Below are positions 7,168 to 48,794 of a stretch of 64,000 bases of DNA, one piece after another. A model generated the notes under the pieces. It was given only the letters and a program-made list of their open reading frames with translations, was not told the DNA's origin and did not search any database. The stretch comes from Desulfosudaceae bacterium. GTDB taxonomy: Bacteria > Desulfobacterota > Desulfobacteria > Desulfobacterales > Desulfosudaceae. The stretch is taken from NCBI GenBank assembly GCA_963674745.2, contig CAXXDV010000003.1, positions 1,024,001 to 1,088,000 of the forward strand, written 5' to 3'. A program made the translations under genes and the position numbers. Every line of letters starts with the position of its first letter. The first letter of the stretch is position 1.

Positions 7168-9024
7168 ATGGCTGCACGAAAAGAAAAAAAGAAAGCAACT
7201 GGTTATGATAAATATATCGACTGGAAAATATTTATTGTTCCCGTTGTGCTGTGCGCACTGGTACTGATGCTCCCGGCAAGTCGGGGCATGCGGGATGTGG
7301 GGGTGGAGTATCAGGTCGGTACGGATGCGGTAATTGAGTATATCACCCAGCAGTTGTTTCAGGCCGACAGCGAGTCCGCCGAACAATGGCAGCTTTTGAC
7401 GGCCCGTATTATGGAAAAAAACATGCGCATGGGCGCACTGAGCGAGGACCGTTTTTTAAAGCGTAATTTAAAATGGTGCAGCAAGTATGATATCCCGGTT
7501 ACAAAAACCCATCTTGAAATGTCTCAGAAGTTTATTAAGGAACAGATCAGTGCCGAAAATTTTCGAAACATCATGTCGGCGGCCATGGATTTACGGCTGA
7601 ATGGACTTCAATATGACCAGCTTGATGATACCGCCCGAAAGGCGGCTGATATCGGCGCCTGGCAGGTCAAGGTTTCCCTGGCCATGACCGTGTTCGTGGT
7701 GCTGTGCTTTTTGACTGAATGCATTCCGCTGCCCGGCGTAGCATTCTGTATCGGTCTGCTGCTGGTTTTCACGGGCGTTCTCAACCGTGAAGAGGTGACC
7801 ATGATGTACTGGAGTGACGCCTGCTGGTTTATTATGGGCAGCTTGATGTTCGCCGTGGCTTTTGTGAAAACCGGCGTGGACAAACGCGTCTGCTTGATGA
7901 TGTTCAAAAAACTGGCCACGCCAAATGTCAAATGGGTGACGCTGATTATTTTTATTATCATTTCTCCATTGGCGGCTTTTATTTCCGATCATGCCCTGGC
8001 GGCCATATTTTTGCCCATCGGTATCCTGCTTTATCAGAACAGCCTGACCAAGGATACACCCCAGGACACGGAACTGGCCAAAATGCTGATGATCACCATT
8101 GCCATGGCCTGCAATATCGGCGGTCCGGGAGCCCCTTCCGGCGGTGCCCGTAATGTTATCATGATGACCTATCTGAACGATATGTTCGGACTGGACATCG
8201 GATATTTCCAATGGGTATCGTATTGTTTCCCCTATCTCATGATTATGATCCCGCTTACCTGGATAATTGTAAATCTGCGGTTCAAGCCTAAAATCAAAAG
8301 CCTTGGCCCGGCCATGGAGCACCTTAAATCCGAAATTAACCGCATGGGGAAATGGAACAAACAACAGATCGTGGCCTTGATTATTTTTGCCGTTATGGTC
8401 TTCGGCTGGTTTACGGAAAAAACGTTTTACGATATGGGCATCCTGCCTGTCCGGCTGGGTATCGGCGTGCTGGCCGTGGCTGGTGCCGTAGCCTATCTTA
8501 TGGCCGGTATCGTTAACTGGCGGGATTACCAGGAAAAGGTTGATTGGGGTGTCGTCTGGCTCTATGCAGGCGCCATTATTTTTGGCCGGGTCCTGGATCA
8601 GACCGGCGCCGCTTACTGGCTGGCCAGAACGGTTCTGGAACTGGTTGCGCCGCTGGGTCTTGACTCGGGACTGCCGTTGATGGCGGTTTCCAACGGGCTG
8701 ACGTCCGTTTTGACCAATCTTATGGCCGACGGTCCGGCAGCCGCCTCGGTGGGGCCCATCGCGCTGAACATGGCCGGCCTGGCGCATCCGGGCACGACTT
8801 ATCTGCCGTTTATCGCCATGTCCACGGCCATTGCCTCGTCTTTTGCCTACTGCCTGATTATCGGCACGCCGCCCAACGCGATTGTCTATGCCAGTGGTTA
8901 CCTGGAGCCCAAGGATTATCTGCGGGTGGGTATTCCCATGTGGTTTATCGCCAATATCCTCCTGCTGGTATTGTCGGGTGTTTATTGGGCGTTGAGAGGC
9001 TTCGGTGATCTGCCGATGTTTTAA
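7168..9024 (+). CDS. SLC13/DASS family permease
   Basis: multi-TM; NIGGPGAPSGGARN, IIGTPPNAIVY; RBS GAGGAGG. Confidence 0.88.
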   Translation: MAARKEKKKATGYDKYIDWKIFIVPVVLCALVLMLPASRGMRDVGVEYQVGTDAVIEYITQQLFQADSESAEQWQLLTARIMEKNMRMGALSEDRFLKRNLKWCSKYDIPVTKTHLEMSQKFIKEQISAENFRNIMSAAMDLRLNGLQYDQLDDTARKAADIGAWQVKVSLAMTVFVVLCFLTECIPLPGVAFCIGLLLVFTGVLNREEVTMMYWSDACWFIMGSLMFAVAFVKTGVDKRVCLMMFKKLATPNVKWVTLIIFIIISPLAAFISDHALAAIFLPIGILLYQNSLTKDTPQDTELAKMLMITIAMACNIGGPGAPSGGARNVIMMTYLNDMFGLDIGYFQWVSYCFPYLMIMIPLTWIIVNLRFKPKIKSLGPAMEHLKSEINRMGKWNKQQIVALIIFAVMVFGWFTEKTFYDMGILPVRLGIGVLAVAGAVAYLMAGIVNWRDYQEKVDWGVVWLYAGAIIFGRVLDQTGAAYWLARTVLELVAPLGLDSGLPLMAVSNGLTSVLTNLMADGPAAASVGPIALNMAGLAHPGTTYLPFIAMSTAIASSFAYCLIIGTPPNAIVYASGYLEPKDYLRVGIPMWFIANILLLVLSGVYWALRGFGDLPMF

Positions 9025-9078
9025 CCAGACAAGACAATGGCCCTAATGCGTTTCCAGTTCAACACAAAGGAGTCGGTT

Positions 9079-9210
9079 ATGAGAAAATCAAAAGAAAAAA
9101 TTTGTAAATACCAGGACGGCAGACTTTATTTTACGACCGGTGCTGAAAGAAAGGTGATGTTTATCCTGACCGTTGCCATGCTGATTGCCGGCATAATGGT
9201 TAAATTTTAA
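9079..9210 (+). CDS. 43-aa small protein with C-terminal hydrophobic helix (not in ORF track)
   Basis: AAGGAG RBS; MRKSKEKICKYQDGRLYFTTGAERKVMFILTVAMLIAGIMVKF*; fills the gap between operon genes. Confidence 0.7.
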   Translation: MRKSKEKICKYQDGRLYFTTGAERKVMFILTVAMLIAGIMVKF

Positions 9211-9226
9211 CAGGAAGGACCCGGCC

Positions 9227-9754
9227 ATGATGACAGCGACCCGAATTCATTTCCCGTTGGCCGTTTATGTTCGGATCGTTACCCGTATGTTCACCGGACC
9301 CGGTGCGCTTTACGGGGAACTTGAAACAACCGGACCGGAAATCCGTGAGGCGTTTACCTTTTTGATATTCGCTTCGCTGATTTCTGCGGGTGCGGGCATA
9401 TTGGTGCATCGCCCTCCCGAGTTCATGGCCGTGTTCGGTATTCTGTTCGCCAATGCTGTGGGGATGTGCTTTTTCGCGGTCATGGTGGGTTACATCATCA
9501 TGATCATGGGATTCGGCAGGAAGTCGTCTTTTTTGAAGCTGTTCAGGATATATGCTTTAGCCTCGGGCACGACCCTGTTGCTGTCATGGATTCCGTTTTC
9601 CCTCATGTTTACAGAACTCTGGAAGTGGTGGTTGATTTTCGTCGGACTGACCAGGGGGGGCGTGTTTAATAAAAAAGAGGGCGCGCTGGTATTGATCCTG
9701 TCTATTGCCGTCATCGTTCTCTTTTTCCGGTCGCTTCTGGCGGTATTGGCATAA
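9227..9754 (+). CDS. YIP1-like membrane protein
   Basis: about 5 hydrophobic segments; N-term FTGPGALY, mid RIYALAS. Confidence 0.6.
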   Translation: MMTATRIHFPLAVYVRIVTRMFTGPGALYGELETTGPEIREAFTFLIFASLISAGAGILVHRPPEFMAVFGILFANAVGMCFFAVMVGYIIMIMGFGRKSSFLKLFRIYALASGTTLLLSWIPFSLMFTELWKWWLIFVGLTRGGVFNKKEGALVLILSIAVIVLFFRSLLAVLA

Positions 9755-9805
9755 TCAGGTGTCTGATATTGAAAATGACAAACATAAATTGAAGGAATAA
9801 AAGCA

Positions 9806-10723
9806 ATGGAAAGAAAAATCAAGGTGTTGATGGTTGATGATGAGGACCAGTTCCGGGCTACCACGGAAAAACTGCTGACCCGACGCGGATTTGAGATGAT
9901 TATGGCTGATAACGGCAGATCGGCCATTGATAAAATCAGTCAAAATCCGGATGTGGTCATTCTGGATATCAAGATGCCTGACATGGATGGCCACCAGACG
10001 CTGCGGGAGATCAAAAAGATCAAGCCCGATCTGCCGGTGATTATGCTGACCGGCCATGGTGAAATCAATTCCGCGTTACAGGCCCGTCACGAAGGCGCCC
10101 TGGATTATCTTTCCAAGCCCTGTGATATTAATTTGCTGGTTGGGAAAATCAGGGAAGCCTTTCAGCGGGCAATGAGTGGCGCTGAAGGGAAAGAAAAATT
10201 GATCTCGGATATCATGATTCCGATCGACGAGTACACGCTTTTAAGCCAGAACAGTTCGGTGATGGACGCCATCATGAAACTGCAGGAATCATTTAATATG
10301 AAGATGGCTACTTCGCGGCTTATGGAAACCGGTCACCGTTCCATCCTGGTCGTTGATGACCAGAAACGGGCCCAGGGGATCCTGGCGATTACCGACCTGC
10401 TCCAAACGATGCTGCCGGCTTACCTGAGTGCTCCCCGACCGTCTCTGGCCGACAGCATTCAGTATTCGCCTATTTTTTGGAACGGCATGTTCACGACCGA
10501 AGTCCGGGAAAAAGCCTCCACCCTTATCAGCGAGATCATGTCACCGGTGCCTGTTTCCATCGATGGTGAAGCTTCGTTAATGGAAGCCGCTTATATGATG
10601 ATTCATCATCATGCCAGGCGTTTGCTGGTTGTTATAGATGACGCCGTAGTGGGCCTTGTTCGGGAGCAGGACTTGTTTTTTGAAATGGCCAGGATCCTGG
10701 ACCAGGAAGAGGTAAATCCATGA
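9806..10723 (+). CDS. receiver + CBS-pair protein
   Basis: LMVDDE/LDIKMP/LTGHG/YLSKP, then ISDIMIP...ISEIMSP...RRLLVV..VVGLV CBS repeats. Confidence 0.85.
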   Translation: MERKIKVLMVDDEDQFRATTEKLLTRRGFEMIMADNGRSAIDKISQNPDVVILDIKMPDMDGHQTLREIKKIKPDLPVIMLTGHGEINSALQARHEGALDYLSKPCDINLLVGKIREAFQRAMSGAEGKEKLISDIMIPIDEYTLLSQNSSVMDAIMKLQESFNMKMATSRLMETGHRSILVVDDQKRAQGILAITDLLQTMLPAYLSAPRPSLADSIQYSPIFWNGMFTTEVREKASTLISEIMSPVPVSIDGEASLMEAAYMMIHHHARRLLVVIDDAVVGLVREQDLFFEMARILDQEEVNP

Positions 10724-11679
10724 ACTTGTCCTTGTTTGAGCTGCCAAAAACCTACAAATTTCTTGTTATGGCCGTTTTGATCTTTATGTCCGCCTATCTG
10801 GCCTATTATTACCACCGGGTGCTGGGTACCGGGACGGTGTTTACACACTTTTATTACCTGCCGATTGTACTGGCCTGTATCTGGTGGAAGAAAAGAGGAC
10901 TGATGGTGATTGCGTTGCTTTCCCTGGTCCTTCTGGGAAGTGACCACATTTTTCGGGGTAGTGAAGGCTATGCCAACAATTTCATGCGCATTCTGATATT
11001 TTTCCTGGTTGCCTTTGTAAGCATACTGCTCAGCGAGGGTATTGAAAAAGCACAGGAAAGAGCCAATGAAAACAAACTCTGGTATCAGACCATTTTTTAT
11101 AATGCCGGCACCGCTATAGCGATTCTGGAAAAAGACGCTGAAATTGATTTGGTCAACGTGGAGTTTGAAAAATTGACCGAATATTCAATGGAAGAACTGG
11201 GGACGAACAGAAGCCTGTTCACCATGTTGGCGGATAAACACATGCATAAAGCAAGAAATTATTACTACTATGTCCGTAAAGAGAAATTTTACGGGGCCGG
11301 ATACCTGATGGTCAAATTGAATAACAAGACCGGCGGTGTCAAAGATATCCGGCTGACATTTACACTGATCCCGGGCACGAATAAAATCGTAGCCACCATG
11401 GTTGATGTCACCCAGTTAAAGAAAGCCATAGAAGAACAACGGCGCTTGAAGTCCGAACTTTCAGAAACACTGACCAAGGTGCTCAGCGGATATCTGCCGA
11501 TATGTTCCAGATGTAAGAAAATTCGTGAGGATTCCGGTAAATGGCGCCCTGTGGAATCTTATATCCAGGATCGTACGGATGCGGACTTTACCCATACCGT
11601 TTGTCCTGAATGTGCCAAAATCCTTTATCCGGAACTGATTAATGATCTGGATGATGAGGGGCGGGATTTAATCGTTTAA
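10720..11679 (+). CDS. membrane sensor-PAS protein with C-terminal CxxC...HxxCxxC tail
   Basis: about 4 TM; PAS-like YQTIFYNAG..VNVEFEKLTEY; LPICSRCKKIR...FTHTVCPEC. Confidence 0.75.
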   Translation: MNLSLFELPKTYKFLVMAVLIFMSAYLAYYYHRVLGTGTVFTHFYYLPIVLACIWWKKRGLMVIALLSLVLLGSDHIFRGSEGYANNFMRILIFFLVAFVSILLSEGIEKAQERANENKLWYQTIFYNAGTAIAILEKDAEIDLVNVEFEKLTEYSMEELGTNRSLFTMLADKHMHKARNYYYYVRKEKFYGAGYLMVKLNNKTGGVKDIRLTFTLIPGTNKIVATMVDVTQLKKAIEEQRRLKSELSETLTKVLSGYLPICSRCKKIREDSGKWRPVESYIQDRTDADFTHTVCPECAKILYPELINDLDDEGRDLIV

Positions 11680-35679: not shown

Positions 35680-37422
35680 TTATTTTATTGTTTGCCCGCT
35701 CTGCCGGCCTTGTGAGCTTCCCGATTGTGGATTATCAGTATTTTCGGCCGCTTTATGCCGGATCATTTCTATATCGTATTTTAAGTCGGTGTTTTCCGGT
35801 TTCAGCTTTTCCGCCTTGTTGAGGAAAGTGAGTGAACGGTTATACTGCCCCTTTTGGGCGAAATGCAGGCCAAGCTTATAATAGGGGAGCGCCCGGTCCG
35901 GGATTTTCTGGGTCAGTTCATACCAGATAGCGGCCGCCTGCTCTGCGTTTCTCATCAGTTGAAGCGAATCGGCCAGATTCATGGAGACGATGTAACGCAC
36001 GTCCGGATCGGTCTTTTCATCCATGGCGGAATAAATGCGTTTAAAATCGGCTGCGGCCGGGCCATACTGGCCATTGATTTTATAATGAATGCCCCGGTTG
36101 TAAGTCGCTATCGGCATGAATTTCTTTTGGTAAGACATCCGTATGGATTTTGCGTTGAACCCGATAACCAGACAAATAAAGACAGCGGCCAGAGCGGTTC
36201 TGCCCGTCCAGTTCAATTTGTAAAATGTTCCGGGCAGCCGCCACAGGGTAAATGCGCTGATAACGCAGAACAGGGGTATCAAGGGCAGCCGGAAACGTGA
36301 CAGCACGTAAAAGGCAATGACGGAAAATACGCCGGTGATAAAATAAAGTGCCAGCAACAGGCGGCCCTTTTCCCGCCGTTTTAAAAAAAGCAAGACCAGT
36401 CCAAGGATCGCCAGAGGTGAAAGGATACCCAGGGAAACGTAAGGTAGCCGCAGCAACGGAACGACTTCACGGTATGCATAGAAATCGACAAACTGGGAGA
36501 ATTCATAGTTGAAAAAGAAGGCATACAGTTTGGAAAACTGCAAATGGATCCAGTTCATGCCATGACTGCTGATGTCCTCGAGCAGAAACAGCATAAAACG
36601 CCATGAACTGCCGCCATATGTCTTCAACAGGGGGTACCAGCTGTCCTGTTCCCACCAGCCGACGCCACAGGCTTGATGAAAATGGCTGTTTAACAGAACC
36701 AGGCGTCCCTGGGTAGTGATGCTCAACAGCCCGGTGCCGGCAAGTAAATTGCGTAAGACGATCAATCCGTATACCGAAACAAAAGGCAGCACAAAACGAA
36801 GCATTCGCCGCCGATCCGTTCTGTTTAATGCCAGAAACACCAGGCCGGCCATGAACAGGAAGATATTGTTGGGGCGGCATATAAAAGCCCAGCCGTAAAA
36901 TATTCCGGACAGTATCAGGCACGGTGATGACCTGTCATAAACGGCCCGGATCAGGCAGTAAAACGCGGCCGTCAGCAGGAATGTTACCAGGGAGGCCATC
37001 AGCAACGCGCCTTCATAACAAAGCGCCGGAAGATAAAGCGCGTAGAGGAGGCTGGCCGTGAGGGCTTCTTTGTCTGTGAATAAGCGCCGGGTCAGTAAAA
37101 AAATCAGCAGCCCGGTAATGATCCCCAGTCCCCACTGAATCACTCGTGCCGCCAGGGGGGTCTTGCCGAACAGTTGATAAACAGCTCCCAGGAAATACAG
37201 ATAGCCGGGGCCCCGGGTAATGGGGCCTTTTTGACCGATGATATAACCGTCGGCGATGGCGACAGCTGTTTTGTGATAATAATCCTGGTCATCTGGAAAG
37301 ATAAACCGGTTGAATCCGGGGTAATCGGCAATTTGAAGGGAATAACCGGCTCTCAGCACCGTCATCAGCAGCAGGATCAGGAGCAGGGCGATGGGGACGA
37401 ATTTTTTATAATCAATCTGCAT
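35680..37422 (-). CDS. GT-C fold (ArnT/PMT-like) membrane glycosyltransferase with C-terminal TPRs
   Basis: DDQDYY..A, RGPGYLYFL, ICRPN, SRFRLP; C-term YNRG/YYKLG TPR-like helices. Confidence 0.7.
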   Translation of the reverse strand: MQIDYKKFVPIALLLILLLMTVLRAGYSLQIADYPGFNRFIFPDDQDYYHKTAVAIADGYIIGQKGPITRGPGYLYFLGAVYQLFGKTPLAARVIQWGLGIITGLLIFLLTRRLFTDKEALTASLLYALYLPALCYEGALLMASLVTFLLTAAFYCLIRAVYDRSSPCLILSGIFYGWAFICRPNNIFLFMAGLVFLALNRTDRRRMLRFVLPFVSVYGLIVLRNLLAGTGLLSITTQGRLVLLNSHFHQACGVGWWEQDSWYPLLKTYGGSSWRFMLFLLEDISSHGMNWIHLQFSKLYAFFFNYEFSQFVDFYAYREVVPLLRLPYVSLGILSPLAILGLVLLFLKRREKGRLLLALYFITGVFSVIAFYVLSRFRLPLIPLFCVISAFTLWRLPGTFYKLNWTGRTALAAVFICLVIGFNAKSIRMSYQKKFMPIATYNRGIHYKINGQYGPAAADFKRIYSAMDEKTDPDVRYIVSMNLADSLQLMRNAEQAAAIWYELTQKIPDRALPYYKLGLHFAQKGQYNRSLTFLNKAEKLKPENTDLKYDIEMIRHKAAENTDNPQSGSSQGRQSGQTIK

Positions 37423-37684
37423 TATCACCGGACGAGGGCTTAATGTTATTACCTATAAAAATACAACCATACCATAAAACATGACAGCAGGTAAAGCCGG
37501 CCGGCCCGGGTTGAGGGCGTTGGTTTTATTTGTTCTTTTCTTCAGGTTGGCGTTGACGGCTAACGGTTTACGCTCTTTTGAGCCGACGACTTATGCATTG
37601 ACATCAGCCGCCTTCGTGGCATAGGGTTTATATATCCTTTTACCCAAATATTACCATAAACCACATAACGATTGGATCGGTCGA

Positions 37685-39012: not shown

Positions 39013-39906
39013 TTAAGGGTTGTTGCAGGTCAGACTCCTGCTCGTCGAATTGTTGTTATCGTTTACTTCTGCCACAGCACTGTTGGCGTCGACCCATACC
39101 CGGATGGGGTGAACAATATTGTATCCCAGAACCGTTCCCGGAAACCCGGCGCCGATCGGGCACCAGGTGCAGCTCACCGTTGTTCCCGGGGCCTTCAGTG
39201 TTCCGCCCGGATCAAACGCGCTCAGTGCCATGCTGCTGTGAAGGTTATTACCATAATACATATTCAGGATTGACGCATTTGTCCCATAGGCCGCGTCCGG
39301 GACACCGCCGGTGCCGATGTTGCTGACCGTGACTTCTATCGGGCAGCCGGCAACCTGGGTCCCCTCGATGACCTTGATGTCGCTGACGATCAGGTCCGGC
39401 ATCGCTCCCTGGCAGGTCAGGTTTCTGGTCATGGAATTGTTGCTTTCGTTGGCCTCTGCCACGGCATTGCCGGTATCGACCTCAACCCGGATGACATGCG
39501 TTCCCGGATTCAGGTTCAGGCCCGGTGACCCCTGAAACCAGACTTTGCTGACCGACGTTCCGGGGGCCTTTAACTGGCCGCCCGGATCAAACACGCTCAA
39601 TACCATGCCGCCATGGGGCTGGTTCCCCTGATACATCTGGATTGCGCAAAGGTTCCCGGTATAAACCGGGTTGGGAACACCGGCCGTACCGACGTTTTGA
39701 ATGGTAACCCTGATCCAGCAGTCCTGAATCAAATCGATATTACTGACGACCAGATCCGGCTTGAGCGATTTTCTGAGCGGTTTTTTTATCGGCGGCTTCC
39801 TGATGGAGCTATCCGGGTGAAACCGCGTTTGAGCGAACAGCAGACCCGTTGACAATATACTGATAAAAATAAAAAGTGCTCCCGTCATGATGGCTGTTTT
39901 TTTCAT
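39013..39906 (-). CDS. secreted protein with two CARDB-like Ig domains
   Basis: signal peptide; two units PDLxVS...V.NxG...VDxxxAVAExNxxNN. Confidence 0.75.
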   Translation of the reverse strand: MKKTAIMTGALFIFISILSTGLLFAQTRFHPDSSIRKPPIKKPLRKSLKPDLVVSNIDLIQDCWIRVTIQNVGTAGVPNPVYTGNLCAIQMYQGNQPHGGMVLSVFDPGGQLKAPGTSVSKVWFQGSPGLNLNPGTHVIRVEVDTGNAVAEANESNNSMTRNLTCQGAMPDLIVSDIKVIEGTQVAGCPIEVTVSNIGTGGVPDAAYGTNASILNMYYGNNLHSSMALSAFDPGGTLKAPGTTVSCTWCPIGAGFPGTVLGYNIVHPIRVWVDANSAVAEVNDNNNSTSRSLTCNNP

Positions 39907-40131: not shown

Positions 40132-40300
40132 GTAGGGGCAACCCCCCGTGGTTGCCCTTCATCAGGGCAGGCACGGGGGCCTGCCCCTACATTATTCATG
40201 AACGCCATCCACGGCCCAGGTTACCCTTTTGACCTCGGTCCGTAGGGGCAACCCCCCGTGGTTGCCCTTCATCAGGGCAGGCACGGGGGCCTGCCCCTAC
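40132..40300. repeat. two identical 59-bp REP doublets, 110-bp period (BIME/REPIN-like)
   Basis: GTAGGGGCAACCCCCCGTGGTTGCCC-TTCATCA-GGGCAGGCACGGGGGCCTGCCCCTAC x2. Confidence 0.9.
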
Positions 40301-40301
40301 A

Positions 40302-40871
40302 TTAAAAGCCTCTGTCCCTGCAATAATAATTGTCCGGGTTTTCCCGATCCAGATCCCATTTTCGGGCATTATTGATGATGTATTCCCTGGCCAGATTCAA
40401 TTCAGTCTCATCACGGATAATATGTTCATAATAATTACGTTGCCACAATCTGCCGGAAAACCTTGTCCAACCCCTTTGTTTAACTCCATCAACATATTGT
40501 TTCGTGGTTATGGTTTTAAAACGATGAACAACATCCGGTAACGATAATGTAGGGGCAACCCCCCGTGGTTGCCCTTCACCAGGGCAGGCACGGGGGCCTG
40601 CCCCTACAATAATTATAATGCCGTGAATATGATTTGGCATGATGGCAAATTTATCGATTTTTATACCGCTATAATATTCGGGTATTGCGCCCCAGACCAT
40701 TTGAATCATCAGGCCGATACCATTCAAAAACATGTTGCCGTCAACAATTTTTCCAAACAGGCATTTCCGGTTTTTCGTACATACCGTTACAAAATATGCA
40801 CCGGATTGTGAATAATCATATTTTTTTAAACGAATCGACCGCCGACGATGAGTAACGGGATTAAACACCAT
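40302..40871 (-). mobile_element. REP-associated tyrosine (Y1/HUH) transposase, RAYT
   Basis: RRSIRL..YDYS..GAYFVTVCT, MPNHIH (HUH), WQRNYYEHIIR, EYIINN; flanked by GTAG REPs. Confidence 0.92.
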
Positions 40872-40946
40872 ATTTCGTCCTCCCTGACGTGTGTGTGTTT
40901 GTTGCGCAGGAGCCTCTCGAGTGGCTCTCCGTTTATATTTTGACCC

Positions 40947-41175
40947 GTAGGGGCAACCCCCCGTGGTTGCCCTTCATCAGGGCAGGCACGGGGGCCTGCC
41001 CCTACAACATTTGCAAACGGCCTGCAACACATCGAATCTGAAACCCCGATATTCCCCCCCGCAAAGCGGGCCGAATCCAGTCTCACCCCCCGTCCCCTTA
41101 AACACATAATCACCTAAACACATAACCACATCCCTAAATCCCTAAAACCCTAACACTCTAAAACTTTAAAACCGT
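40947..41175. repeat. REP doublet plus composite arm
   Basis: 59-bp doublet 40947-41005, CCCGCAAAGCGGG hairpin, TAANCAC and TAAAAC arrays. Confidence 0.85.
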
Positions 41176-42783
41176 TTAAGTCGTAATGTCCAGCAACCCG
41201 CCTGAAACGGCAGTTTCATTGAGCAGGGTATCGGTGATCTCTTCTTCGGCATCCCTTATTTTTCGTGCCGGCACGCCAAGGCTTTTGGCCAGCACGGTAA
41301 AGTCGACCTCTTCTTCCGGCCGCTGTTCAAGCGACTGGAAAAGAAGCGAGGTTATCCCCAGTTGATATCGGCTTTGGGTCTGGAATTCCCTGTGGTGCCG
41401 TTTTAACATCCCGGTTTCACTGATCAGAAAGACCCTGGCCTCAGGCCTGGCCAGTTTGGCGCCCAGGGCCAGTGGATACCCCGCGCCGGCAACATCAACA
41501 TCATCCAGCAGAAAACAATTATGCAATCCCGGAGGCATTAAATAAACCATGGCTACCCTGGCAACGGCAGGGCCTTCACAGATAACGATATCTTCGGGTG
41601 TAATAACGGCATTGATCCGTTCAATCGCGTGGATCATGCTATACAGGCGGTCTTCGTGAATGGTCAGGCACTCTCGCAGCCTGGACTTATGGGAAGCGAT
41701 GGTGACGAAAAGCGCCTTTTTCCAGTCACTGTTGATCGAAAGCAGTGATGTCATGTCGGACAAAATTCGGGAGAACTGTTCCATTATGGCCTGGGGCGAG
41801 CCCGACAAGCCGGTGGTAATGGGCATGATTGAGCCAAGAGAAGCCGTCAGTTCAGCGGTCTGGATGATTTTTATGTCGGGATTAAGAGCCGCCAGGGCGG
41901 TTGCCAGGCGGGCGGTTTCCTCATCCGCTTCAAACAGTATAATCAGGTCTGTTTCCGATAACAACCCTCTGTTCTGAGCGTTATCCCAAAGCCAGCATCC
42001 TCCCAGATTCAGTGTATAACCGGCGGCCAGCGTGCCAAAGGCCGGGGTCGAGGTGATGACCGGAGCGCCGGTAATCTGCAGAAAATCGGACAGGGCCTGG
42101 CCGGCCCTGGCCCGTTCCACGTTTCGACCGGCCAGCACCAGGGGTTTGCTGGATTTTTTGATCAACTCAACCGCTTCGGCAAGGCCGCGTTCATCCGGGT
42201 AAATCAGGCCTTTAAACCTGAAATCCGCGTCTGGAAAGAGGTCTCCCATTTTTTTGGCGGACACCCGCTTAAAACCGAATATGACATCTACCGGCGCGTC
42301 CAGGTGAACCGGTCCGGGTTCAGGCGCCAGTGCGGTTTTAAACGCCCGCTGAATGAGGTTGGGAATACGATCCCGGTGGTAGAGAATGGACGTGAACTTG
42401 GTGATGGGTTTGAATATTTCGTCCTGGTCACAGGCCTGCAGGTTTTCCTGGATCGGTTTCATCTTGTATGACTGGACCTGGGGCGAGATGGAAATCAGGG
42501 GCAGTCGTTCTTTCCATGCAAAATAAAGGGCGCCGATTTCATAGGCAATACCGGCACCGACGGTTGACATGACGCAGGCCGGTTTACCTGAAGCCAGGGA
42601 AAAACCGGCCGCCATCAGGGCACCCGCGCCTTCGTGCCGGGGAATGATCAGGGTCATGCCCGGTTCTTCGTCGATGGCAAAATGAATCGGGTTCATCTGG
42701 CCGCCGGGCAGGGTAAACACATGGGATATATTTTCCCTGGCCAGCGATTTAACGATCAGGTCGGCACCTAGCAAAGTCGGCAT
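41176..42783 (-). CDS. ThDP-enzyme family protein A: intact PYR domain, degenerate PP domain
   Basis: LPGG, RHE (E51), LQACDQ, GPVHL; no GDG..NN (ISETGML instead). Confidence 0.85.
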   Translation of the reverse strand: MPTLLGADLIVKSLARENISHVFTLPGGQMNPIHFAIDEEPGMTLIIPRHEGAGALMAAGFSLASGKPACVMSTVGAGIAYEIGALYFAWKERLPLISISPQVQSYKMKPIQENLQACDQDEIFKPITKFTSILYHRDRIPNLIQRAFKTALAPEPGPVHLDAPVDVIFGFKRVSAKKMGDLFPDADFRFKGLIYPDERGLAEAVELIKKSSKPLVLAGRNVERARAGQALSDFLQITGAPVITSTPAFGTLAAGYTLNLGGCWLWDNAQNRGLLSETDLIILFEADEETARLATALAALNPDIKIIQTAELTASLGSIMPITTGLSGSPQAIMEQFSRILSDMTSLLSINSDWKKALFVTIASHKSRLRECLTIHEDRLYSMIHAIERINAVITPEDIVICEGPAVARVAMVYLMPPGLHNCFLLDDVDVAGAGYPLALGAKLARPEARVFLISETGMLKRHHREFQTQSRYQLGITSLLFQSLEQRPEEEVDFTVLAKSLGVPARKIRDAEEEITDTLLNETAVSGGLLDITT

Positions 42784-42845
42784 GAGGATTGTCTTTCTTT
42801 AAAGATATCGTTTTTGAAAGCGTAATTTTTTTATTCAATCGAAAA

Positions 42846-43455
42846 AGGTTTTAGGTTTATGTGGTTAAGTGGTTAAGTGATTAAGTGATTAAGTGATTAA
42901 GTGATTAAGTGTTTAAGTGATTAAGTGTTTAAGTGTTTAAGTGGTTAAGTGTTTAAGCGGGCGCGGTGTGAGACTTGTTGCAGCCCGCTTTGCGGGGTTT
43001 TAAGTTTTAGAGTGTAATCGTTTTAATTTTTTTAGGTCTTGGTAATGTATGGTCTCGTAGGGGCAACCCCCTGTGGTTGCCCTTCATCAGGGCAGGCACA
43101 GGGGCCTGCCCCTACAATATGCATGAACACCATCCCCGGCCCGGGTTACCCGTTTTGCCCCGGCATTATTCATGAACACCATCCCCGGCCCGGGTTATCC
43201 GTTTTGCCCCGGCCCGTAGGGGCAACCCCCTGTGGTTGCCCTTCATCAGGGCAGGCACGGGGGCCTGCCCCTACAGCATTTGCGGACGGCCTGTAATAAA
43301 GCTGAACCTTAAATCTCGGTCCTTCCCCCGCAAAGCGGGCCGATTCCCGACCTCGAACCCCGTCCCCATAACCACTTAACCACTTAAACACATAATCACT
43401 TAACCACCTAAACACATAACCACCTAAAACCCTAAAACCCTAAAACTCTAAAACC
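42846..43455. repeat. symmetric repeat island: arm - REP doublets - arm
   Basis: 13 TTAAGTGn-type octamers 42857-42960, hairpin, doublets 43057-43115 and 43216-43274, hairpin, TAANCAC/TAAAACC arrays. Confidence 0.85.
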
Positions 43456-43501
43456 ATCTTCTAAAAGGCCACAGCCTTCCGCTATCTAACCCCTGCCCGT
43501 T

Positions 43502-45352
43502 TTACATGGTCTTAAACAGAAACTTGACCATATTCCATGAATTCCGGCTGAACAGGTTCAACCGGTTTTGATACAAGCGAAGGGCTTTTTTCAGGGGCAG
43601 CGGAAACAAAGACCCCATGAACTCAACCCGTATAAAACTGGCCAGGGCATCAGGATAGACATTTTTATCCGTCGGAATGTCGATCAGTACCGGATGGTCG
43701 GCCTGGATCGCATCCCGGATCATGGCCGGCACGTCTTCCAGCCGGGTAACGCGTTTAACCGTAATGCCGAACGCTTCGGCCACATCGGCGTAATTCTGTT
43801 CCGGCAGTTCCGTGCTGACCGGCCGGTTGACCATCACCTCGCCGGCCCGGATCATGTTCCAGGCGGAATCATTGTTGACCACAATGGTAATCGGCAGGTT
43901 GTAACGTTTCATCAGTTCCAGTTCCTGGATATTGTACATCAGGGAACCATCGCCGGTCAGGAGCATGACCGGTTTTTCCGGGGCGGCCGCTTTAAGCCCC
44001 AGGGCCATGGGAATGCCCACGCCCAGGGTGGCCATGCCGGTGGGGAAAAAAACACGCTTAGGGCCTTTGACGCGCATGGTCATGCCCGCCCACAGGGGGG
44101 TATTGCCACCGTCGACGACAGCAATGGCATCCGATTTTTCGATATATTCCCTGGCGGCCAGCAGTCCGGCCGCGGGATGAAATTTTCCGTCTTTGCCCCG
44201 GTGGTCGCGGGCTTCTTTTTGCAGTCGTTTTTCGTGATCCCGGTTTTTCTGTTTTAAGTGGTTGACCCACCCGGACCAGTCGGGCAGGGGGGGATCATGT
44301 TCGACCAGATCGAGCATCTGGGAGAGAAACAGACCGGCGTCAGCGATGATGGCCGTCCGTGCTCCCGGGTTCAAGGCAATGTACTGGTGATCGATGTTGA
44401 CCTGGATGAACTTGATGCTGCCTGACCAGAGCGGTGGCAGGCCGAAACCGTCCAGGCCGCTGAAACAGGCCCCGACAGCCAGGACCACGTCCGCCTGTTT
44501 GATCGCCGTGTGAAAAGCTTCACCGGCCAGGTAACTTGACGGCCCGATATACATGGGATTGCCCGGGTCAACCACGTCCAGCGCGCCCATACTGGAAAGC
44601 AGCGGAATGCCGGTTTTTTCGGCCAGCCGGTTGAGCAGATCGGCGGCATTGGCTTTGACGACGCCCCCGCCGGCAAAGATGAACGGCCGCCTGGCGGTCC
44701 TGATCAGATCAAGGGCCTGACGGATTTTTTCCGGTTCTCCCATTGGCGGCACAACATGGGGAACCCAGCCGGCAAACGGGTTTTCTCCCCCGGGCACTTT
44801 AATCTCAGATACTTTTCGGGATTCGAGCAGGGGCAGCGGGATACGAATGTGGGCCGTTCCGCCCCGGCCGCTGACGGTTTCCCGGGCGGCGCGCTGGACG
44901 GCGGGCGCCAGATCACGGATCTTGTGGATGGTCGTATGATACACGCAAACCGGCGCGAACACGTCTTCAAGGTTGGTGGCTTCGCGATCAAATACCGGCG
45001 AGCGGGGAAAATCTGTCTCCTGGCACACGGCGATGGTGATTACCGGTGATTTGTCGCCCCAGGCGGTGGTTACGCCCATGACCTGGTTCAGGCAGTGACC
45101 GCCGCCCGTGGTCAGTGAAACCACCGGTTTTCCGGTATAACGGGCACAGGCGTCTGCCATGGGAACACATGCGATATCACTGACCGGTTGAACGAGGTGC
45201 AGACCGTTGATGTTTTTTATCGCCCGGGCAATAAAATCGGTTGTGGGATGATCTTCCATGAAAACGTATTCAATACCGCACGCTTTTAAGGTTTGAACCA
45301 GGATTATGGCGCCGGTTGCATTGTCCCTGTTATTGATATCGGGTGCGCCCAT
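43502..45352 (-). CDS. ThDP-enzyme family protein B: degenerate PYR domain, intact PP domain
   Basis: QPVSD in place of RHE; intact GDGS-x-NND motif; start MGAPD after GGAG. Confidence 0.88.
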   Translation of the reverse strand: MGAPDINNRDNATGAIILVQTLKACGIEYVFMEDHPTTDFIARAIKNINGLHLVQPVSDIACVPMADACARYTGKPVVSLTTGGGHCLNQVMGVTTAWGDKSPVITIAVCQETDFPRSPVFDREATNLEDVFAPVCVYHTTIHKIRDLAPAVQRAARETVSGRGGTAHIRIPLPLLESRKVSEIKVPGGENPFAGWVPHVVPPMGEPEKIRQALDLIRTARRPFIFAGGGVVKANAADLLNRLAEKTGIPLLSSMGALDVVDPGNPMYIGPSSYLAGEAFHTAIKQADVVLAVGACFSGLDGFGLPPLWSGSIKFIQVNIDHQYIALNPGARTAIIADAGLFLSQMLDLVEHDPPLPDWSGWVNHLKQKNRDHEKRLQKEARDHRGKDGKFHPAAGLLAAREYIEKSDAIAVVDGGNTPLWAGMTMRVKGPKRVFFPTGMATLGVGIPMALGLKAAAPEKPVMLLTGDGSLMYNIQELELMKRYNLPITIVVNNDSAWNMIRAGEVMVNRPVSTELPEQNYADVAEAFGITVKRVTRLEDVPAMIRDAIQADHPVLIDIPTDKNVYPDALASFIRVEFMGSLFPLPLKKALRLYQNRLNLFSRNSWNMVKFLFKTM

Positions 45353-45365
45353 GGCATCTCCATTT

Positions 45366-45971
45366 TTACGGGGTGATAAGCTCAATCATTTTTTTCGATG
45401 CATACTCACCGACATCTGCCAGGGCGTCGATCGGCAGAAAATCGGCGGCATTGGATGAATAAAGACAGGTCACGGATGCCGGAAAATCTTCATCGGCGGC
45501 ATAAAAGATATAGCAGAGGCATATTTTCGGTAAGGGGTTGACGGTAAAGGCCAGATCCCCCCCGATACCATCCGGCGCGCTGCCGCCATTGAAATGTTCC
45601 CGGACGAGGTCGGCCGATTCCATGATTTTGTCCGCATGCGGTACGAGGATCTGTTCGGTGTGGGTGTGAAAAGCGCCGGCATAGGGCATGGTGTCCGGGA
45701 ACTCTTTGTAGGCCCTATACGGTTCCTTGCGGCAGGGCGCTGCTGTCGTATGAAGGGCATAAAGGGAAATGATGATGCCTCTGGGGTCGGTTACCTGAAC
45801 GTTTCCCAGGCTGATCCCCTCGGGTGAAATGATGCAGGTATCGCCGAAAGCGTCAAAAACAAACCGGTCCCCGTCTATTGTCGCCGGCAGGCGGTTGACG
45901 GCCGAACCAGACGCATTTTCATAAAACCTCAACAGGTTGTCGCGGATGATGGCTTCGTAGTTGCTGCCCAT
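45366..45971 (-). CDS. DUF3786-like protein
   Basis: IIISLY..YKEFP..YAGAF..LPKI..ADEDFPASVTCLY..LPIDAL. Confidence 0.7.
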   Translation of the reverse strand: MGSNYEAIIRDNLLRFYENASGSAVNRLPATIDGDRFVFDAFGDTCIISPEGISLGNVQVTDPRGIIISLYALHTTAAPCRKEPYRAYKEFPDTMPYAGAFHTHTEQILVPHADKIMESADLVREHFNGGSAPDGIGGDLAFTVNPLPKICLCYIFYAADEDFPASVTCLYSSNAADFLPIDALADVGEYASKKMIELITP

Positions 45972-46234
45972 TTTTTTGGTTCATCTCCCGACATAAAACA
46001 TCTCAATAGCAAACACTTGAATCCTCGACCCCTTGAATCCTTGAACCCTGTGTGCCCACTAAATTTGGAGAAGAGCCTGTCTTTTAAAAAAGAGTTCCTG
46101 GATACTCAATATGGTCTTGATGTTAACACCGGATTACGGTATAAAATAAACATATCATCAAGTAGGTAATCATACACGGATTTGATTTCACGGCAAACGT
46201 TTTTTAAGATTTACCATTTTTGTTCGGGGGGCAT

Positions 46235-46795
46235 ATGGGGTTAAAAGTCAAGGGAACCGTATTGATAGACCTCGTCAAACAGGTCCGGTCGGCAAAAGAC
46301 CGGAATTGGGAAAAGTATCTGACAGCCGAAGATATGGAGTTGATTAACGGTGAGATAATGACGTCTTCCTGGTATCCGGATGATTTTTTTTACCGCCTGT
46401 CTCTGGCGGTGTTCAAGGTTACCGGCGAATCCAATCTCGACAATTCTTTTGCTTATGGCCAGTTGACTGCTCATAATATGGCCGATGTGTATAAAAATGT
46501 GATCGTTCAAAACGACCCGGCCACCACCATCGAGCGTTTTGTTTCGCGCCGGAAGTCGTTTTTCAGTACCGACTACCAGGACTCTGAAAGAAATCAGGTC
46601 ATCAAGGACGACAAAAAGGTTACCATCTACACCATCAGTGATAAAAAGATTAGGGGAACGGAAGTATCTGAAGTAATAATGTACTCCGTTATGGGTGTGG
46701 CTCATGAGCTGGCCACCATCGTCGGCGGACACAACGTGCAGTCCCATCTGGTTAAGCATAACGAGGGCTTTAAAATAACCATCAGCTGGTTATAG
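46235..46795 (+). CDS. hypothetical protein, paralog 1 (DUF2378/H-NOX-like N-terminus)
   Basis: VKGTVLIDLV..SSWYPDD; sigma70-like TTGATG-17-TATAAA at 46117-46145. Confidence 0.7.
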   Translation: MGLKVKGTVLIDLVKQVRSAKDRNWEKYLTAEDMELINGEIMTSSWYPDDFFYRLSLAVFKVTGESNLDNSFAYGQLTAHNMADVYKNVIVQNDPATTIERFVSRRKSFFSTDYQDSERNQVIKDDKKVTIYTISDKKIRGTEVSEVIMYSVMGVAHELATIVGGHNVQSHLVKHNEGFKITISWL

Positions 46796-46808: not shown

Positions 46809-47369
46809 ATGACAGTTCAGGTCAAGGGCACCCTTCTGGTTGATCTTGTTAAACAGGTTCGGGTGGCCCGGGATAAAGATTGGGAGACGTATTTGACGCC
46901 GGAAGACATGGTGCTGATCAACGGTGAAATCCTGACATCCGCCTGGTACCCGGATGATTTTTTTTATCGCCTGTCTTTAGCGGTATACAAGGTCATCGGC
47001 GAATCCAGTCTGGATGCCTGTTTCGCCTACGGGCAGCTTGCGGCCCACAATATGGTCGAAGTTTATAAAAACATTTTGGTTCCGGACGATCCGGCCACGA
47101 CCATCGAGCGCTTTGTGGTCCGTCGTCAGACTTTTTTCGAAACGGATTATCCGGATGACGAACAGAATCGCGCGGAAAAGGGTGACGGCCGGATAACGGT
47201 ATATACCATCGCCGACACAAAGATTCGAGGCACAGAAACAGCCGACGTCGTCATCAATTCGCTGCTGGGCATATTTTACGAACTGGCGGTTATCGCCGGC
47301 GGAAAAAATGTCCAAACCGACATTCAACACATAGGCGAACAGCACGCACTGACCGTGACCTGGAATTGA
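46809..47369 (+). CDS. hypothetical protein, paralog 2
   Basis: collinear and highly similar to paralog 1; AGGAG RBS. Confidence 0.7.
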   Translation: MTVQVKGTLLVDLVKQVRVARDKDWETYLTPEDMVLINGEILTSAWYPDDFFYRLSLAVYKVIGESSLDACFAYGQLAAHNMVEVYKNILVPDDPATTIERFVVRRQTFFETDYPDDEQNRAEKGDGRITVYTIADTKIRGTETADVVINSLLGIFYELAVIAGGKNVQTDIQHIGEQHALTVTWN

Positions 47370-47380
47370 CGCCGGCCATG

Positions 47381-48691
47381 TCAGGCGTCACGGTCAAATT
47401 CCGTCGACATATAAAGTTCCACGGGATGACAGACCTGAATGTCTGTTCCGCCATGTTTTGACAACAATCCCGCCAGTTGAATCATGCAGGCCGGGCAGGC
47501 GGTGGCCACCATCCGGCAGCCGCTGGCAATGATATTCTCCCGCTTGCGTCCGCCAATTTTTTCGGACAGGTCGTTGTGGGCCAGCCCGAACCCGCCGCCC
47601 ATGCCGCAGCAGACATCCGCTTCCGCCATTTCAATCAGCCGGTAGGCCGGGTTGGCGGCAATCAGTAGCCGTGGGGCCTGGTGTACGCCCAGGGATTTTT
47701 TCAGATGACATGGGTCGTGATAGGTCACAGCAATGCCCTTATCGTTCGGGCGGGGCGGGTCCGTATCCAGGCCGGCAGCGATCAGTTCCGTTATATCCAT
47801 TGTCTTTTCGGATAATTGTTGGACAAAGGCGTATTCCTGGTCTTGCGGGTCGACCATCATGGGCCAGATTTTTTTGATGGTAAAGGTACAGGTGGCGCAG
47901 GCCGTGACCAGTCGATCAAAAGAAAGCGATTTAAACCGGTTTAGGTTATATGACAGTAACTGCCGGAAGGATTCGCCGTCTCCCGCTGACAGGGCGGGAA
48001 TACCACAGCATCCTTCGCTGTCCGGTAAAATGACGTTAAAACCCTGATGCGCCAGCGCCTTGACGGAAGCCCTGGCTACCTGCGGAAACACCTTGTCGAG
48101 CAGGCAGCCGGTGAAAAAAAGAACCGTTTCTTTTCCGGTCGTCTGTGCCTGATGCTTTTCGACTATTTTTTGACGATGAAAGGGAACCGGTGCCAGCGGC
48201 ACCACATGTCGACCGGCCAGAAGGGGGGAGGCTGTAATCCGGGCGCAACTGGTTCCCAGCCCGGGATTGACTTGTTTTAAAAACAGCCCCTGTGATTTTG
48301 CCGCCAGATCGGCGGCCCGGTTGAATCTTTCCGGTTTTGCCAGCAGCTGCCGGAAAACGATTTTTTTCAAGGGGGACAGGCCCAGGTATCCGGCCAGCAA
48401 CACCCGGGCTTTTAAGAAAATTTCCAGTGTATTGACACCGTTGGGGCAGACACCGGCGCAGCCGCCGCAAAGAAGGCAGCGGTCCAGCCGGTCTTTGACG
48501 CTGTCGGCGTTTTTGACCACCTCGGACATGACGCCTTCCAGGATGGCGATTTTACCCCGGGCCACATCCCTTTCCAGTCTTGTTTGCGGGTAAATCGGGC
48601 AGGCGGACAGGCAAACCCCGCACTGTTTGCAGACGGCGGTCTGTTGTTCGAGCGATCCGGCCAGGCGCGCCAGTTCTTTGATGTGCTTCAT
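47381..48691 (-). CDS. Fe-S oxidoreductase subunit, GlcF-like (2 ferredoxin motifs + 2 CCG domains)
   Basis: CKQCGVCLSACP, CLLCGGCAGVCP, CCG x2, YHDPCH; start MKHIKE. Confidence 0.85.
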   Translation of the reverse strand: MKHIKELARLAGSLEQQTAVCKQCGVCLSACPIYPQTRLERDVARGKIAILEGVMSEVVKNADSVKDRLDRCLLCGGCAGVCPNGVNTLEIFLKARVLLAGYLGLSPLKKIVFRQLLAKPERFNRAADLAAKSQGLFLKQVNPGLGTSCARITASPLLAGRHVVPLAPVPFHRQKIVEKHQAQTTGKETVLFFTGCLLDKVFPQVARASVKALAHQGFNVILPDSEGCCGIPALSAGDGESFRQLLSYNLNRFKSLSFDRLVTACATCTFTIKKIWPMMVDPQDQEYAFVQQLSEKTMDITELIAAGLDTDPPRPNDKGIAVTYHDPCHLKKSLGVHQAPRLLIAANPAYRLIEMAEADVCCGMGGGFGLAHNDLSEKIGGRKRENIIASGCRMVATACPACMIQLAGLLSKHGGTDIQVCHPVELYMSTEFDRDA

Positions 48692-48794
48692 GCCTATGTC
48701 CGTATTCTTATTGTTGATGGCCTCGTAAAAAGCCCTTATACGCCATTCCGGGCTTGGAGACGGTGCCGTAATGTGTAATTCCAACCTTATTTAA

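Follow-up and report, generated by a model that had tools for sequence, protein, structure and literature searches.

Enzymes of the decarboxylase/AHAS/POX superfamily, which use thiamine diphosphate (ThDP), assemble each active site across two subunits, one contributing its PYR domain and its partner the PP domain. They are treated as symmetric homomers with paired sites, and the known heteromers are split single-domain chains. ComDE (sulfopyruvate decarboxylase) and RhiEF (phosphonopyruvate decarboxylase) carry PYR on one chain and PP on the other, bind the cofactor at the hetero-interface, and consist of single-domain chains described as ancestral or split (PMC12141560). Here we describe two neighbouring genes, A and B, located in a 64,000-nucleotide stretch of DNA from a Desulfosudaceae bacterium (contig CAXXDV010000003.1, positions 1,024,001 to 1,088,000; hereafter the window, to which all positions refer unless another locus is named). 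As in ComDE and RhiEF, PYR and PP function would reside on different chains; however, A and B keep all three domains, and in each of them the domain that works in the other persists as a degenerate copy. Because both proteins are full length (535 and 616 amino acids) with three domains each, the one-domain-per-chain arrangement of the ComDE/RhiEF type does not apply to them, and the sequences of the pair suggest that it arose by duplication with complementary loss rather than by a split.

Homomeric decarboxylase, AHAS, POX and oxalyl-CoA decarboxylase (OXC) enzymes belong to the same three-domain fold family and share their motif positions with A and B, but neither A nor B has the full motif set, and an A:B dimer would contain one site rather than two. 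In the enzyme-pseudoenzyme heteromers PRMT1 enzyme-prozyme and DHDDS-NgBR, a duplicated paralogue without catalytic motifs is likewise kept as an obligate partner; there, however, a dead chain is paired with a complete one, whereas A and B are each half-dead in opposite domains. No full-length pair of ThDP paralogues with complementary degenerate domains was found in the literature covered, which leaves out most subscription journals, and within that literature A/B is an undescribed full-length pair among ThDP heteromers. We consider it probable that A and B are two subunits of one ThDP enzyme, an A:B heteromer whose hybrid site combines A(PYR) with B(PP); their physical association, the single site per heterodimer and the chemistry are all predicted here from sequence.

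Complementary loss of active-site motifs

The two genes, their diagnostic positions and the DNA between them are as follows.

41176-42783, minus strand: gene A, encoding a ThDP paralogue of 535 amino acids and three domains, of which PYR is conserved and the middle and PP domains are degenerate
42259-42783, minus strand: PYR domain of A, residues 1-175
42631-42633, minus strand: codon of A Glu51, at the catalytic-Glu position according to PDB alignments and family counts
41386-41421, minus strand: A residues 455-466, SETGMLKRHHRE, replacing GDG(S)..., with the NN segment downstream missing
42784-43501, no strand: intergenic repeat island, 718 nt between A and B
43502-45352, minus strand: gene B, encoding a three-domain ThDP paralogue of 616 amino acids from its ATG, in which PYR is degenerate and conservation covers the middle domain, the PP domain and a C-terminal extension
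45176-45178, minus strand: codon of B Asp59, in the catalytic-Glu column of the PDB and family alignments
43868-43954, minus strand: B residues 467-495, the GDGS...NND diphosphate/Mg motif (family alignment)
43505-43657, minus strand: C-terminal extension of B, residues 566-616, PD..SF..VEF.G, present in B-type proteins and in the single-gene form S (below) and absent from A

A preliminary description of this DNA had presented the genes as long, uninterrupted and co-oriented with a repeat island between them, which is how they stand, the island being 718 nt of repeats. A TTG at 45385 provides an alternative start for B (627 amino acids); the ATG is favoured over it because the closest B homologues (P0122-P0125) have 616 amino acids.

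All three Pfam domains (PYR, middle and PP) score above the gathering threshold in A and B alike, with the strongest match at opposite ends of the two proteins. For A the scores were 90.6 bits for PF02776, 57.8 bits for PF00205 and 26.2 bits for PF02775, the last against a gathering score of 21.9 bits and confined to profile positions 31-80 of 151. For B, PF02775 matched over its entire length (1-151 of 151) with 125.1 bits, followed by PF00205 with 105.1 bits and PF02776 with 58.5 bits.

At the level of individual motifs, A contains LPGG (residues 25-28), PRHE (48-51, ending in Glu51) and LQACDQ (115-120), and has SETG (455-458) at the place of GDG. In a MAFFT alignment with the complete paralogues of the same genome, SETG is followed by KRHHRE and then by a deletion, through which A lacks the NN segment and the C-terminal part. 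Alignments to PDB entries pair 'prhe' of A with 'tkhe' and 'isetg' with 'lvgda'. B contains FMEDH (31-35), PVSD (56-59), TGGGH (82-86), GDGS (467-470) and NND (493-495); the position of ..PGG.. is taken by FMEDHP and that of the T-x-G-P-G loop by TTGGGH, and 'pvsd' pairs with 'mrhe' in the PDB alignments. On single chains, B thus carries the pattern GDG-X(24-27)-N(N), and A, with SETG and no NN, does not.

These states are not peculiar to the window. Word-indexed searches recovered ~50 A-type and ~100 B-type proteins with identities down to 30-35%, a good number of them on contigs equal in length. The recurrence of the same motif states in 118 A-type and 163 B-type sequences is far beyond chance. 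All 117 A-type sequences with a residue in the catalytic column have Glu in it, corresponding to Glu51, and none of the A-type sequences has GDG. Among B-type sequences GDG occurs in 160/163 and ND in 162/163; at the catalytic-Glu column, occupied by Asp59 in the window, 132 of the 148 non-identical sequences with a residue there have Glu and 16 have Asp. An acid is therefore kept at this position, and the PYR domain of B is degenerate rather than stripped of its acid. The preliminary description had seen in A a preserved PYR signature combined with loss of the PP diphosphate/Mg motif, and family counts and Pfam scores (90.6 versus 26.2 bits) bear this out. Its view of B as the mirror image holds for the intact GDGS..NND and the degenerate PYR motifs but not for the catalytic-Glu column.

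Neither protein could be assigned to a named enzyme. We considered the 25 best NCBIfam models for each protein and judged them by their curated cut-offs, which none of the 25 reached (best scores 164 versus 509 bits for A and 218 versus 538 bits for B); neither A nor B is therefore AHAS, OXC, 2-hydroxyacyl-CoA lyase (HACL) or another named enzyme. Both fell below the cut-off of 538.35 for the AHAS large subunit (TIGR00118 and NF models), with 163.5 bits for A and 217.8 bits for B. B also remained below the cut-offs for OXC and HACL (NF006721, 187.9/557; TIGR03254, 178.7/739.4; NF058623, 190.9/600), and such models were not among the best 25 for A. Public annotation names both genes 'thiamine pyrophosphate-binding protein' or 'acetolactate synthase large subunit'. 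The nearest solved structures were BbmA (8x3x) for A and an oxalyl-CoA decarboxylase-like protein (8vzk) for B, and a search of the ESM Atlas with A returned generic ThDP clusters only. Another PDB match of B, 8rph, was rejected as a relative, being the unrelated homomer JanthE.

Complementary constraint on the two proteins

The distribution of sequence conservation mirrors that of the motifs. Mean identities were taken over the 2122 usable pairs, out of 2485, that 71 loci with both genes provide. Among A-type proteins mean identity was 0.57 in PYR, 0.29 in the middle domain and 0.30 in PP; among the B-type partners it was 0.37 in PYR, 0.52 in the middle domain, 0.50 in PP and 0.41 in the C-terminal extension. 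Invariant columns follow the same division: 38 of the 48 in A-type proteins lie within PYR, including PGG, TVGAG and QVQS..K.P.QE.LQ..D, compared with only 4 of 45 in B-type proteins. The TVGAG loop and the QVQS.K.P.QE.LQ..D segment of A are invariant or nearly so, and their counterparts in B vary among B subfamilies and carry indels.

Selection was estimated as the ratio of nonsynonymous to synonymous substitution rates (dN/dS) by the Nei-Gojobori method over 40 close, non-independent pairs. The ratios were 0.07 (PYR), 0.24 (middle) and 0.16 (PP) for A, and 0.10-0.11 for the middle domain, PP domain and C-terminal extension of B; they are, if anything, overestimates because the proportion of synonymous differences (pS) is ~0.5 and dS is near saturation. 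Between the window and locus L001, dN/dS was 0.13 for A overall and 0.02 for its PYR domain, and 0.13 for B overall and 0.12 for its PYR domain. The values for A in this comparison exclude neutral decay of the gene. Purifying selection acts on every domain of both proteins (dN/dS 0.02-0.25), including those that the preliminary description had regarded as dead (A PP 0.16, A middle 0.24, B PYR 0.12).

A and B form a conserved two-gene module

Genome scans were made from each side of the pair. Starting from an A-type alignment and one genome per species, we obtained 34 loci, and 33 of them have a B-type gene (>600 bits on the B model) directly upstream on the same strand. The A-seeded loci span at least seven named phyla: Thermodesulfobacteriota, Spirochaetota, Myxococcota, Planctomycetota (anammox), Bacillota, Actinomycetota and Pseudomonadota. 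One of them, L015, belongs to the cultured Desulfatibacillum alkenivorans DSM 16219. Conversely, a metagenome scan seeded with a B-type alignment gave 56 loci, comprising 48 B-type, 4 of the single-gene form S and 4 unrelated ThDP enzymes. Every B-type locus with downstream DNA carries an A-type gene there (45/45); the other 3 of the 48 end at a contig edge.

An even sample of 401 genomes from the window's phylum gave the same picture, with A-type (>600 bits) and B-type (>860 bits) proteins present in the identical 4 genomes, where they are adjacent. A further 37 genomes matched the B model at 338-428 bits with proteins that lack the C-terminal extension; spot checks of 8 places in these genomes gave 6 readable sequences, every one of them an ordinary complete ThDP enzyme with Glu and with GDG or GDS. 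The co-occurrence that the preliminary description had proposed as a check is thus observed from both sides, and A-type genes without B are not common, with one exception (L019) in 34 loci.

The spacing and history of the genes are also those of a unit. The distance from the stop of B to the start of A has a median of 3 nt (range -8 to 175, 70 loci), which is the spacing of translationally coupled subunits. Pairwise identities among A proteins and among B proteins are correlated with r = 0.97 (2346 locus pairs), and in 47 of 69 cases A and B have their nearest neighbour at the same locus. A quick maximum-likelihood tree recovered an A clade and a B clade, each with a Shimodaira-Hasegawa-like approximate likelihood ratio test (SH-aLRT) support of 100, and three mirrored subfamilies. 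Mirrored trees and correlated identities point to one old duplication followed by inheritance as a unit, and the pair has probably also been transferred between lineages as a unit. From these patterns we conclude that A and B are best seen as a conserved two-gene module and not as a product of decay.

A single-gene form combines the conserved halves

A third type of protein, S, is encoded by a lone gene. It has ~606 amino acids and was found at the metagenome loci L070 (5989-7809), L074, L080 and L084 and in the library cluster P0241, the one 50%-identity cluster that this rare form makes up in the representative library. S scores on both models (A ~425 bits, B ~650 bits), and an A gene is absent downstream. 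Its PYR domain is closer to A-types (47-52% identity) than to B-types (31-35%), whereas the reverse is true of its middle domain (22-24% to A-types, 47-56% to B-types) and its PP domain (20-26% and 38-44%). S has the B-type C-terminal extension together with Glu, GDG and ND. Signatures of the A-type PYR domain (SGG, PRTE, TVGAG and QVQSWKM.P..ESLQGCDQ) are thus joined in one chain to those of the B type (DGGNT, GMGTLG, GDGA and NDGCYNMIR).

This mosaic shows that exactly the two well-conserved halves, PYR of A and the middle domain, PP domain and C-terminal extension of B, make up a complete chain. S would be the one-chain equivalent of the proposed A:B site, complete and with the partner gene absent. 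It is under purifying selection (dN/dS 0.12-0.13) and, with 369.3 bits on the AHAS model, is closer to complete enzymes than A or B, although still below the cut-off. By sequence, S could either be a survivor from before the duplication or have formed later by recombination between A and B. Approximately unbiased (AU) tests rejected neither a B clade without S (p 0.55) nor a grouping of S with A3 (p 0.31), and the relation of S, A and B in the trees is a polytomy.

The surroundings of S were recorded at two loci. In L070 it is followed (7989-11362) by three SRPBCC (polyketide-cyclase/START-like) genes and a gene for a ferredoxin-domain protein; in L080 (7989-11932) by one called SRPBCC gene and genes for a ferredoxin-domain protein and an AMP-binding acyl-CoA synthetase. 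Upstream of S lies a PMT_2/TPR glycosyltransferase gene, and a gene of the same type occurs near the pair in the window (35680-37428).

A proposed hybrid site in an A:B heteromer

The proposed enzyme would have arisen by one ancient duplication followed by complementary, domain-level loss. The PYR half of the site would come from A and include Glu51 as the catalytic residue, the loop TVGAG and the QVQSYKMKPIQENLQACDQ segment; B would provide the GDGS..NND diphosphate/Mg anchor, the DGGNT and NDSAWNMIR segments, the middle domain and a lid-like C-terminal extension. In a head-to-tail A:B dimer, or an A2B2 tetramer, there would be one complete site per pair, because sites of this superfamily are shared between the PYR and PP domains of different subunits. 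The reciprocal pocket, B(PYR) with A(PP), would lack canonical ThDP-Mg anchoring and may be kept as a scaffold, possibly with a secondary role. The acid of B and [DE]455, H463 and R465 of A could serve as structural fillers, as a relay or as a ligand site.

Coupling between the two sites of ThDP enzymes has long been debated, in terms of alternating sites and of a 'proton wire'. We raise, as a tentative possibility, that the dormant B(PYR)/A(PP) pocket serves the single active centre through Glu/Asp59 of B and [DE]455, H463 and R465 of A, either by relaying or taking up protons or by binding an allosteric ligand. Such a pocket, if real, would be a natural test case for coupling between two ThDP sites. 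The heteromer itself, if correct, would be a clean case of domain-level duplication and complementary degeneration locking in a heteromer, and a natural asymmetric single-site ThDP enzyme with which to probe the need for site-site communication in catalysis. It also carries a warning for annotation, as either A or B expressed alone is predicted to be probably inactive.

A number of observations weigh against a hybrid A:B site, and they bear on different alternatives. First, an acid occupies the catalytic-Glu column in 148/148 B-type sequences; this would not be expected if the pocket were entirely dead, and B:B dimers may therefore have some activity. The enzyme might then be a B:B homodimer working with its own Asp/Glu59 and intact PP domain, with A as a non-catalytic regulator, scaffold or substrate-delivery subunit. 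The full GDG..ND motif of B agrees with this arrangement, as do its higher scores than those of A against complete enzymes. However, the PYR domain of A is the most constrained part of the whole system, including the catalytic Glu and the loop at the cofactor ring, and a pure regulator needs neither; the pocket segments of the B PYR domain are unconserved between B subfamilies; and the single-chain S carries an A-like, not a B-like, PYR domain. We therefore think a B:B enzyme unlikely. The earlier expectation that both homomers would be non-functional has a firm basis for A and, given the acid at the Glu position, is tentative for B.

Second, the former diphosphate site of A is not featureless. 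The A-type family retains [DE]455, H463, R465 and E466 there, with the conserved acid one position before the canonical Asp, and the retention of [DE]455, H463 and R465 means that the A(PP) pocket may bind something. These A-specific residues could belong to a non-canonical, metal-free site for the cofactor or another ligand, in which case A and B would be separate, co-transcribed homomeric enzymes of one pathway, an idea also in keeping with pathway-like neighbourhoods that contain a short-chain dehydrogenase (SDR) gene at 11 of 34 loci and a crotonase-like gene at 7. Against it, the middle and PP domains of A evolve fastest (29-30% identity), the NN segment and C-terminal part of A are deleted and GDG occurs in no A-type sequence. 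Moreover, overlaps or spacings of 1-15 nt are typical of subunits, and the mosaic S suggests that the retained halves belong together. Taken together, these points make two independent homomers very unlikely.

Third, the pair is not intact everywhere. At L004 the B gene is broken into two open reading frames (ORFs). At L019 (G401:C162), the sole exception in the A-seeded scan, an intact A lies beside ~79 C-terminal residues of B, and no second B-type gene was found in this metagenome-assembled genome (G401), whose completeness is not given; the module may have been broken recently at this locus, or the assembly may be at fault. In addition, no fused B-A protein was found among the longer proteins, which is weak evidence.

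Finally, the window itself departs from the usual arrangement, as its 718-nt gap between A and B is unique among the 71 loci and no promoter-like site for A was found within it (42784-43501). The sequence of the gap identifies it as a dispersed-repeat insertion. A, or the pair, could be a decaying duplicate in this genome, uncoupled from the promoter of B by the repeat island. Both reading frames are nevertheless open and full length, no terminator-like site on the minus strand was found in the gap, and dN/dS between the window and L001 (0.13 for A, 0.02 for its PYR domain) runs counter to the neutral decay that the preliminary description had named as a danger to its reading. Decay therefore seems extremely improbable to us, and an A:B heteromer with a hybrid site remains the preferred interpretation.

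The repeat island and its surroundings

The island contains tandem arrays with an 8-nt unit, a pair of inverted arms of 76 nt each (42897-42972 / 43352-43427) and a dispersed 102-nt repeat, of which the genome has ~190-240 copies. Both genes were recovered with zero differences from two DNA runs made on one sample; the short contigs of these runs stop at the repeat island and so neither confirm nor contradict the layout.

The same repeat system covers 40200-41180 as well as 42784-43501, with long inverted arms and with 8-nt arrays of the form (TTAAGTGA)n and its complement. Just downstream of A and flanked by repeats is a gene for an IS200-like/RAYT-type Y1 transposase (40302-40871, minus strand), of which a second copy with 89% identity lies elsewhere on contig C3. 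Short ORFs within the repeats (40826-41113, 43039-43296 and 43170-43415) translate to a recurring '..GAGPRACP..GQP.GVAPT' and are probably repeat read-through rather than genes.

Gene neighbourhood and possible chemistry

The commonest neighbour of the pair encodes an SDR (11/34 loci), often directly after A; L007, L028 and L033 are loci with an adjacent SDR gene. Other neighbours include crotonase-like (7/34 loci), VOC and CMD-family proteins and regulators of the AraC and GntR types. The closest relatives of the window have a different set of neighbours in common, which in the window lies upstream of B.

45366-45971, minus strand: DUF3786 gene, ending 13 nt upstream of B; the same arrangement occurs in L002, among the closest relatives only
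46220-46795 and 46809-47369, plus strand: tandem paralogues of 191 and 186 amino acids, shared with the closest relatives only
47381-48784, minus strand: CCG/4Fe-4S HdrD/GlpC-like protein, likewise confined to the closest relatives, with counterparts near the pair in L001 (71% identity) and L002 (56%)

Searches of the neighbours against NCBIfam returned generic SDR and crotonase names below the cut-offs and nothing for DUF3786 or the 191-amino-acid protein. For the tandem paralogues, Pfam gave no match above a gathering cut-off and NCBIfam gave none. Their homologues sit beside the ThDP genes at L001, L002 and L004, where identity is 53-65%, and a weaker homologue occurs at L052. The CCG/4Fe-4S protein resembles the C-terminal part of LdhH, a quinone L-lactate dehydrogenase subunit (268 bits versus a cut-off of 800).

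Because the neighbourhoods are too heterogeneous, we rejected an assignment of the substrate from gene context. It is no more than a reasonable guess that the chemistry would be that of a C-C lyase or ligase acting on a carbonyl or 2-hydroxy-carbonyl compound, and the reaction would probably be linked to the SDR so often encoded next door. The pair would point to an uncharacterised pathway in anaerobes that include Desulfobacterales, Smithella/Syntrophia, anammox bacteria, Spirochaetota and Actinomycetota. The acetone-induced TDP enzyme of Desulfococcus biacutus was considered as a member of such a pair and rejected, since it is described as a single gene near an SDR and is absent from the A-seeded loci.

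Two further genes were noted in these neighbourhoods. At two Desulfobacterales loci (L011, 11294-11974; L012, 4701-5381) a gene of the DUF2064/TIGR04282 ('arsenosugar biosynthesis glycosyltransferase') family lies beyond the crotonase-like gene on the downstream side of the pair. In the window, 39013-39906 (minus strand) encodes a predicted secreted protein with two CARDB domains.

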